Source: Escherichia phage JLBYU24
Length of the DNA: 64,000 nt
Sequence record: OK272476.1
Reading direction: 5' to 3' (one strand)
Below, one piece after another: positions 40,066 to 40,521 of the stretch. Numbering within the stretch: the first letter of the stretch is position 1; the number at the start of each line of letters is the position of its first letter. Both the position numbers and the translations under genes were made by a program. A model generated the notes under the pieces. That model was not told the origin of the DNA. It made no database searches and saw nothing but the letters and a program-made list of their open reading frames with translations.

Positions 40066-40521
40066 TTATTTTAAATCATCTGCCCAATCAAGTTTAAGAG
40101 GCTCTTTGTATTCACGATCTAATACGACCGGAATTTGTACATCACCGCTAAATGATAAGGGCCCAACATTATAAGACAATGTTATATGCGGTGTGTAATC
40201 ATCAAAATCATGTGTAGCACCTAGTGCCCGCGCATACATGTGTCGACAGCGCAGATATTCAGAATCTAGCACAAGTACAAGAGTCGATCCATCTTGTGTT
40301 TTCCATACTTCTAAATGTCCAGAAGAAGCTACTTCAAAACTTCCGCTTGATGGAACATACGGAACATTTACTCTTGAATAACATATGGTCGAATGAATTT
40401 TTTCTCTAGGAACTGGATTAGGAACACGTAAAGAGCGCTGGAGTTCTTCCAGCGCATCAAGTGTTAATTCTGAAAACTTAGCTGCTACATAAAGACCCGT
40501 TGAAAAGTCTTTAAATTCCAT
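40066..40521 (-). CDS. acb1: 2H-phosphoesterase-like protein at the T4 57B position (anti-CBASS Acb1 homolog candidate)
   Basis: 151 aa; two H-x-T/S motifs (IHSTI and PHITL) typical of 2H phosphoesterases; immediately upstream of 57A as T4 57B. Confidence 0.7.

Follow-up and report, generated by a model that had tools for sequence, protein, structure and literature searches.

An intact acb1 (gene 57B) in Escherichia phage JLBYU24 encodes the Acb1 protein of phage T4

Gene content and organization of the locus

The window considered here is the complete stretch of 64,000 nucleotides from Escherichia phage JLBYU24 (OK272476.1) that was subjected to analysis. Between positions 39000 and 43000 the sequence shares 99.5% identity with Escherichia phage JLBYU31 (Tequatrovirus gizh) and 95-99% with some 500 further T-even records. 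On the minus strand, genes 4, 2, 3, 1, 57A and 57B/acb1 are followed by two internal-protein genes, trna.4, trna.3, trna.2 and a tRNA cluster located some 2 kb from acb1, and this order is common to the window, T4 and JLBYU31. A first-pass annotation made from the sequence had placed the gene of interest at the T4 57B position, and its location directly downstream of 57A and upstream of the internal-protein genes, as in T4, agrees with that assignment. The features of the locus are listed in Table 1.

Table 1. Positions of the features at and around acb1 in the window
Feature	Position	Strand	Basis and remarks
Gene 1 (dNMP kinase)	40763..41476	minus	Pfam DNMK, E=4.8e-104; co-oriented overlapping string 1-57A-57B
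Gene 57A (tail-fibre assembly chaperone)	40521..40763	minus	Pfam GP57, E=2.6e-50; PHROG tail fiber chaperone
acb1 (T4 gene 57B) CDS	40066..40521	minus	Intact ORF; ATG start, 151 codons, TAA stop at 40066-40068
First catalytic motif, H43-S-T45-I (T4 H44, T46)	40384..40395	minus	Residues 43-46, read from the raw sequence
Second catalytic motif, H112-I-T114-L (T4 H113, T115)	40177..40188	minus	Residues 112-115, read from the raw sequence
C-terminal lid region with E140 (T4 E141) and W146 (T4 W147)	40084..40104	minus	Residue mapping; roles from Hobbs 2022
Early-promoter-like site TTTACA-17-TACTAT, extended -10 TG	40024..40052	minus	Consensus match only; 14 nt past the acb1 stop, ahead of the internal-protein gene at 39736-39993
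Internal head/virion protein genes (phrog_3499, phrog_8111)	39736-39993 and 39426-39659	minus	PHROG; replace T4 ipI

There are one-base overlaps, formed by TAATG junctions, both between gene 1 and 57A and between 57A and acb1, and no recognisable Shine-Dalgarno sequence precedes the acb1 ATG. The overlap with 57A suggests translational coupling. From the overlaps and the lack of a recognisable Shine-Dalgarno sequence, we infer that acb1 would be expressed as the final cistron in the 1-57A-57B string, its translation coupled to that of 57A.

Promoter searches add little to this picture. A sigma-70 scan gave 16 sites where 16.5 were expected, none of them convincingly upstream of 57B, and there are 13 copies of the late-promoter motif TATAAATA where 10.9 would be expected, one of them inside gene 1 (41119-41126, minus strand). 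These scans are uninformative, and thus the transcription of acb1 is left as read-through of the 1-57A-57B string. The hexamer pair of the early-promoter-like site in Table 1 recurs at 39722-39694, ahead of the second internal-protein gene. Such an arrangement would fit separate early promoters for the internal-protein genes, which is a reading and not a result because the whole promoter scan is at chance level.

Two plus-strand ORFs also lie in the locus, at 40224-40409 (61 amino acids) and 40238-40381 (47 amino acids). Both were discounted as spurious, given that the minus-strand frame has a complete explanation and is under purifying selection.

The two downstream genes were described in the first-pass annotation as resembling internal-protein genes, and they do match PHROG families of internal head/virion proteins. 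Neither has a Pfam match. T4 differs at this point in carrying ipI downstream of 57B, whereas the window phage has two different internal-protein genes there. An assignment of these two genes as T4 IPI was rejected, since the N-terminal capsid-targeting peptide MKTFKEF is the only feature common to both. The start of the second ORF is placed differently by different sources: the JLBYU31 record begins at an upstream TTG (99 amino acids) and the family profile begins at the internal MKTFKEF (77 amino acids).

Identity of the acb1 gene product

The window protein is identical at 151 of 151 positions to residues 2-152 of T4 57B/Acb1 (NP_049750.1) in a protein alignment. At the DNA level there are six differences from T4 among the 456 shared bases, all of which fall at third codon positions and are synonymous. 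This pattern is a signature of purifying selection and of a working gene. Proteins at least 99% identical are encoded in at least 498 phage records.

Profile searches give the same answer. The protein matches Pfam PF23474 (Anti-CBASS protein Acb1) over profile positions 1-144 of 144 with 202.7 bits (E=2.6e-60), far above the gathering cut-off of 27 bits. It also matches phrog_755 (E=5e-68), a family that carries the label 'RNA ligase'. Among solved structures, the best match by sequence is the Acb1 of Erwinia phage FBB1 (7t26/7t27; E=4.1e-62 for 7t26), with both histidine motifs in register.

There is accordingly very little doubt that the ORF represents acb1 (gene 57B) in a phage of the T4 type (Tequatrovirus), encoding a small 2H phosphoesterase that is predicted to cleave CBASS signals. 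The gene is an already-known one, being neither a variant nor a new member of the family: the phage is a close relative of T4, and the protein is the same as that of the family founder and sits in the same slot. The first-pass wording 'Acb1-like' was correct in kind and too weak: it should read Acb1, given the identity of the protein to a T4 enzyme whose biochemistry has been characterised. Sequence, profile, fold and synteny are all concordant, with no direct evidence against this identity. Its identity, fold, catalytic and contact residues and synteny are established here, and the chemistry, substrate range and in-vivo phenotype are those of the literature on the identical T4 protein.

Start codon and residue numbering

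The stop codon of 57A is TAA in the window and TGA in T4 (40519-40523, minus strand), and the junction reads TAATGG here and ATGATGG in T4. The TAA removes the upstream ATG that is annotated as the start of 57B in T4, leaving an ORF of 151 rather than 152 codons. Since this extra first ATG is absent, residue numbers in the window protein are one below those of T4. Most members of a 28-homologue alignment begin with just one Met, in the column of the window ATG, which suggests that the annotated T4 start may be one codon too long. Plausibly, then, the window ATG would mark the real start in T4 as well, and the published numbering would be shifted by one.

Catalytic motifs and contact residues

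Both of the H-x-T/S motifs noted in the first pass, HSTI and HITL, can be read in the raw sequence. The protein contains five histidines, and the H-x-S/T pattern occurs in it exactly twice. When aligned with T4 Acb1, the catalytic histidines coincide, H43 and H112 corresponding to T4 H44 and H113, and the same two residues match H44 and H113 in the FBB1 protein, for which there is a crystal structure. The active-site tetrad of Acb1 consists of H44, T46, H113 and T115, and the H44A/H113A form of the T4 enzyme serves as a catalytically dead control (Hobbs 2022, PMC9117128). The window protein carries the matching tetrad as H43/T45/H112/T114. Among the 28 homologues, which extend down to 28% identity, H43, P111, H112, T114 and L115 are invariant and T45 is conserved in at least 90%.

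The residues that contact the ligand are likewise retained. By the published account, the adenine-specific glutamate E141 contacts adenine N6, and Y12, W74, F107 and W147 stack against the bases (Hobbs 2022, PMC9117128). Residue mapping finds all five in the window protein, as E140, Y11, W73, F106 and W146. T4 Acb1 and the window protein thus share both the tetrad and the base contacts. The FBB1 enzyme differs at two of these positions, where it has F74 and Y107 in place of the W and F of T4 and the window.

Predicted fold and structural relatives

An AlphaFold2 model built from a 28-sequence alignment has a mean pLDDT of 89.3 and a pTM of 0.82, with disorder confined to the first six and last four residues. 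The model reproduces the compact 2H phosphoesterase fold of the solved Acb1 structures. In these enzymes the C-terminal lid (residues 145-152) is flexible and becomes ordered upon ligand binding. The lid sequence is present in the window protein and identical to that of T4. In the ligand-free model the final residues have pLDDT values below 50, which is compatible with a flexible lid, lid closure itself lying outside the reach of the model.

A Foldseek search against the PDB places 7t26 at the top (rmsd 0.8 Å, target-normalised TM 0.97, 68% identity), followed by 7t27, an Acb1-type phosphodiesterase from Burkholderia phage BCSR5 and then generic 2H phosphoesterases such as LigT. The two FBB1 structures, one of the apo form (7t26) and one with 3'3'-cGAMP (7t27), are about 66-68% identical to the window protein, superimpose with rmsd values of 0.8-1.1 Å and have the HxT/HxT tetrad at the same positions. 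The BCSR5 enzyme (9q2g, 9q2y) shares the fold and lid architecture (E=4e-8, TM 0.65-0.70), although at about 20% identity and 165 amino acids it represents a distant branch of the family; the weak sequence match includes the second histidine motif. The LigT/2'-5' RNA ligase-type enzymes (e.g. Escherichia coli LigT, 5ldi) have the 2H fold and two HxT/S motifs in common with Acb1, but are larger, act on RNA ends and are without a lid for cyclic oligonucleotides. Their matches show 13-15% identity, a TM of about 0.5 and rmsd values of 6-8 Å.

Alternative interpretations

The most substantial competing interpretation is that the gene encodes a 2'-5' RNA ligase or LigT-type enzyme acting on RNA ends with a 2',3'-cyclic phosphate, tRNA repair being one example. 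T4 RefSeq labels 57B 'RNA ligase', in keeping with the description of phrog_755, the structures ranking next behind those of Acb1 belong to LigT and other 2H enzymes, and a tRNA cluster is nearby. However, Pfam PF13563 (2_5_RNA_ligase2) gives a score of just 13 bits, where 27 are required, and covers residues 80-122 alone, while the likeness to LigT is confined to the level of the fold, as the Foldseek values above indicate. Moreover, the identical T4 protein is the purified 3'3'-cGAMP-cleaving activity that is lost from a Δacb1 lysate, and an acb1 phenotype appears only when CBASS is present. We consider an RNA-end enzyme very unlikely and reject the 'RNA ligase' annotation of 57B as an older family-level label. 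Even less probable is decay or inactivation of the gene, as found in phage Bas43 and in Panoptes escape mutants. Relatives with nonsense or inactivating mutations in acb1 do exist and are selected by Panoptes systems, but the 57B slot directly after 57A, when checked for decay, shows no stop and no frameshift in the acb1 ORF, which is of full length and has no amino acid change from active T4 Acb1, its nucleotide changes being only synonymous. The abundance of near-identical proteins in other phage records also argues against decay. A pseudogene is thus rejected at the level of the sequence, in favour of an intact acb1.

The first-pass annotation took the pair of H-x-T/S motifs as the mark of a 2H phosphoesterase. 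The enzyme class is confirmed by homology and fold, whereas the pair of motifs by itself is not statistically meaningful: 16% of shuffled versions of the window protein reach at least two HxS/T motifs, and among the 42 ORFs of 100-200 amino acids in the window 2 do so as well. We therefore rejected the motif pair as stand-alone evidence, and the observation is significant because of homology (the T4 identity, the Pfam profile and 7t26). The shuffling result would also allow the two motifs to be a chance occurrence in an unrelated small phage protein. We assign no weight to this explanation, given that the protein is identical or homologous to Acb1 proteins over its full length, with E values of about 1e-60 and below, and that the motif residues are invariant across the family. 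There is also an unlikely extension of the Acb1 assignment, in which the enzyme would act on a second class of substrate (type III CRISPR cA3, or RNA 2',3'-cyclic phosphate ends), or its synthesis would depend wholly on coupling to 57A, or both. Full dependence on coupling is conceivable since this lineage lacks the alternative ATG that T4 has upstream, and a role with cA3, if true, would connect with Acb1 as a trigger of Panoptes guard systems. Since the cA3/Panoptes part has already been published, novelty would be limited to a role on RNA ends and to the coupling, each of them a minor point.

Proposed function of the Acb1 protein

T4 Acb1 was found by activity-guided fractionation of infected cells as the factor that degrades 3'3'-cGAMP, and the cleaving activity, which is lost from a Δacb1 lysate, can be seen about 15 min into T4 infection (Hobbs 2022, PMC9117128). 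The T4 protein cleaves 3'3'-cGAMP, cUA, cAAA and cAAG 3' of adenosine without a requirement for metal, and does not cut 3'2'-cGAMP or cA4 (Hobbs 2022, PMC9117128). T4-infected cells give lysates that degrade cAAG as well, and treatment with Acb1 stops the cAAG-dependent activation of Cap4 (Hobbs 2022, PMC9117128). T4 Δacb1 grows normally in the absence of CBASS and has a defect of more than 300-fold against active CBASS operons (Hobbs 2022, PMC9117128). In an independent transposon screen, 57B/acb1 was dispensable on K-12, and insertion read counts were clearly lower when the host expressed CBASS.

By analogy with the identical T4 protein, the enzyme of the window phage is predicted to work as follows. 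It would bind the CBASS cyclase messengers 3'3'-cGAMP, cUA, cAAA and cAAG, at least one adenosine being required, and the C-terminal lid would shut over the ligand, with the bases stacked on Y11, W73, F106 and W146. H43, T45, H112 and T114 would then carry out acid-base catalysis without any metal, the 2'-OH of the adenosine attacking the 3'-5' bond by way of a cyclic-phosphate intermediate. Cleavage 3' of adenosine would yield linear products. Because such products would be unable to activate CBASS effectors, the infected cell would avoid suicide before the phage cycle is completed. Both the cleavage of CBASS signals and protection in vivo are predicted for the window protein by transfer from T4.

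The acb1 gene brings no new biology. Its value lies chiefly in correct annotation, as many database records still say 'RNA ligase' or 'hypothetical protein'. There is also a cost associated with this gene: type I and type II Panoptes guard systems restrict Tevenvirinae in which acb1 is intact, and these phages escape by inactivating the gene. From acb1 together with the Vs.4/Acb2 sponge described below, the window phage is predicted to be sensitive to Panoptes-type guards that sense the depletion of cyclic nucleotides.

Other genes in the window

There is a second gene in the window with a likely connection to CBASS. An 88-amino acid ORF at 28448-28714 (minus strand) is 94% identical to T4 Vs.4 and matches the PDB entry 7uq2 'Vs.4' with E=4e-53. 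We take this product to be the Acb2 cyclic-oligonucleotide sponge. Acb2 has the same target as Acb1, namely CBASS signals, but has an unrelated fold and acts by sequestration rather than hydrolysis. T4 encodes both Acb1 and Acb2 (Vs.4). With the match to Vs.4/Acb2, the window phage would have both anti-CBASS genes known from T4, the one for the sponge lying about 12 kb from the one for the nuclease. Together they predict evasion of most CBASS signalling by adenosine-containing di- and trinucleotides. The automatic ORF listing extends the Vs.4 ORF to an upstream TTG (28750). In the record of the closest relative, small genes near Vs.4 are labelled 'pyrimidine dimer DNA glycosylase', which looks like a mis-annotation.

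A macro-domain gene, which the first-pass annotation had grouped with the anti-defence candidates, is indeed present at 26286-26765 (minus strand). Its product passes the Pfam Macro profile (33.1 bits, cut-off 22) and it is the positional orthologue of T4 tk.4. The protein is only 58% identical to T4 Tk.4 and is far more diverged than its neighbours.

The tRNA cluster contains a 655-bp segment at 37005-37659, located between tRNA-Ser and tRNA-Gly. It carries an ORF of 216 amino acids (37010-37660, minus strand) for a SegB-like GIY-YIG homing endonuclease. At exactly the same spot the closest relative, JLBYU31, has 80 bp with a tRNA-Pro(tgg), and no tRNA-Pro is detectable anywhere within the window. 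Some 53 phage records cover at least 80% of a 1.6-kb query spanning the segment (e.g. Shigella phage Phaginator, at 99.6%). From this comparison of sequences, it looks as if a homing endonuclease had inserted here and displaced a tRNA gene.
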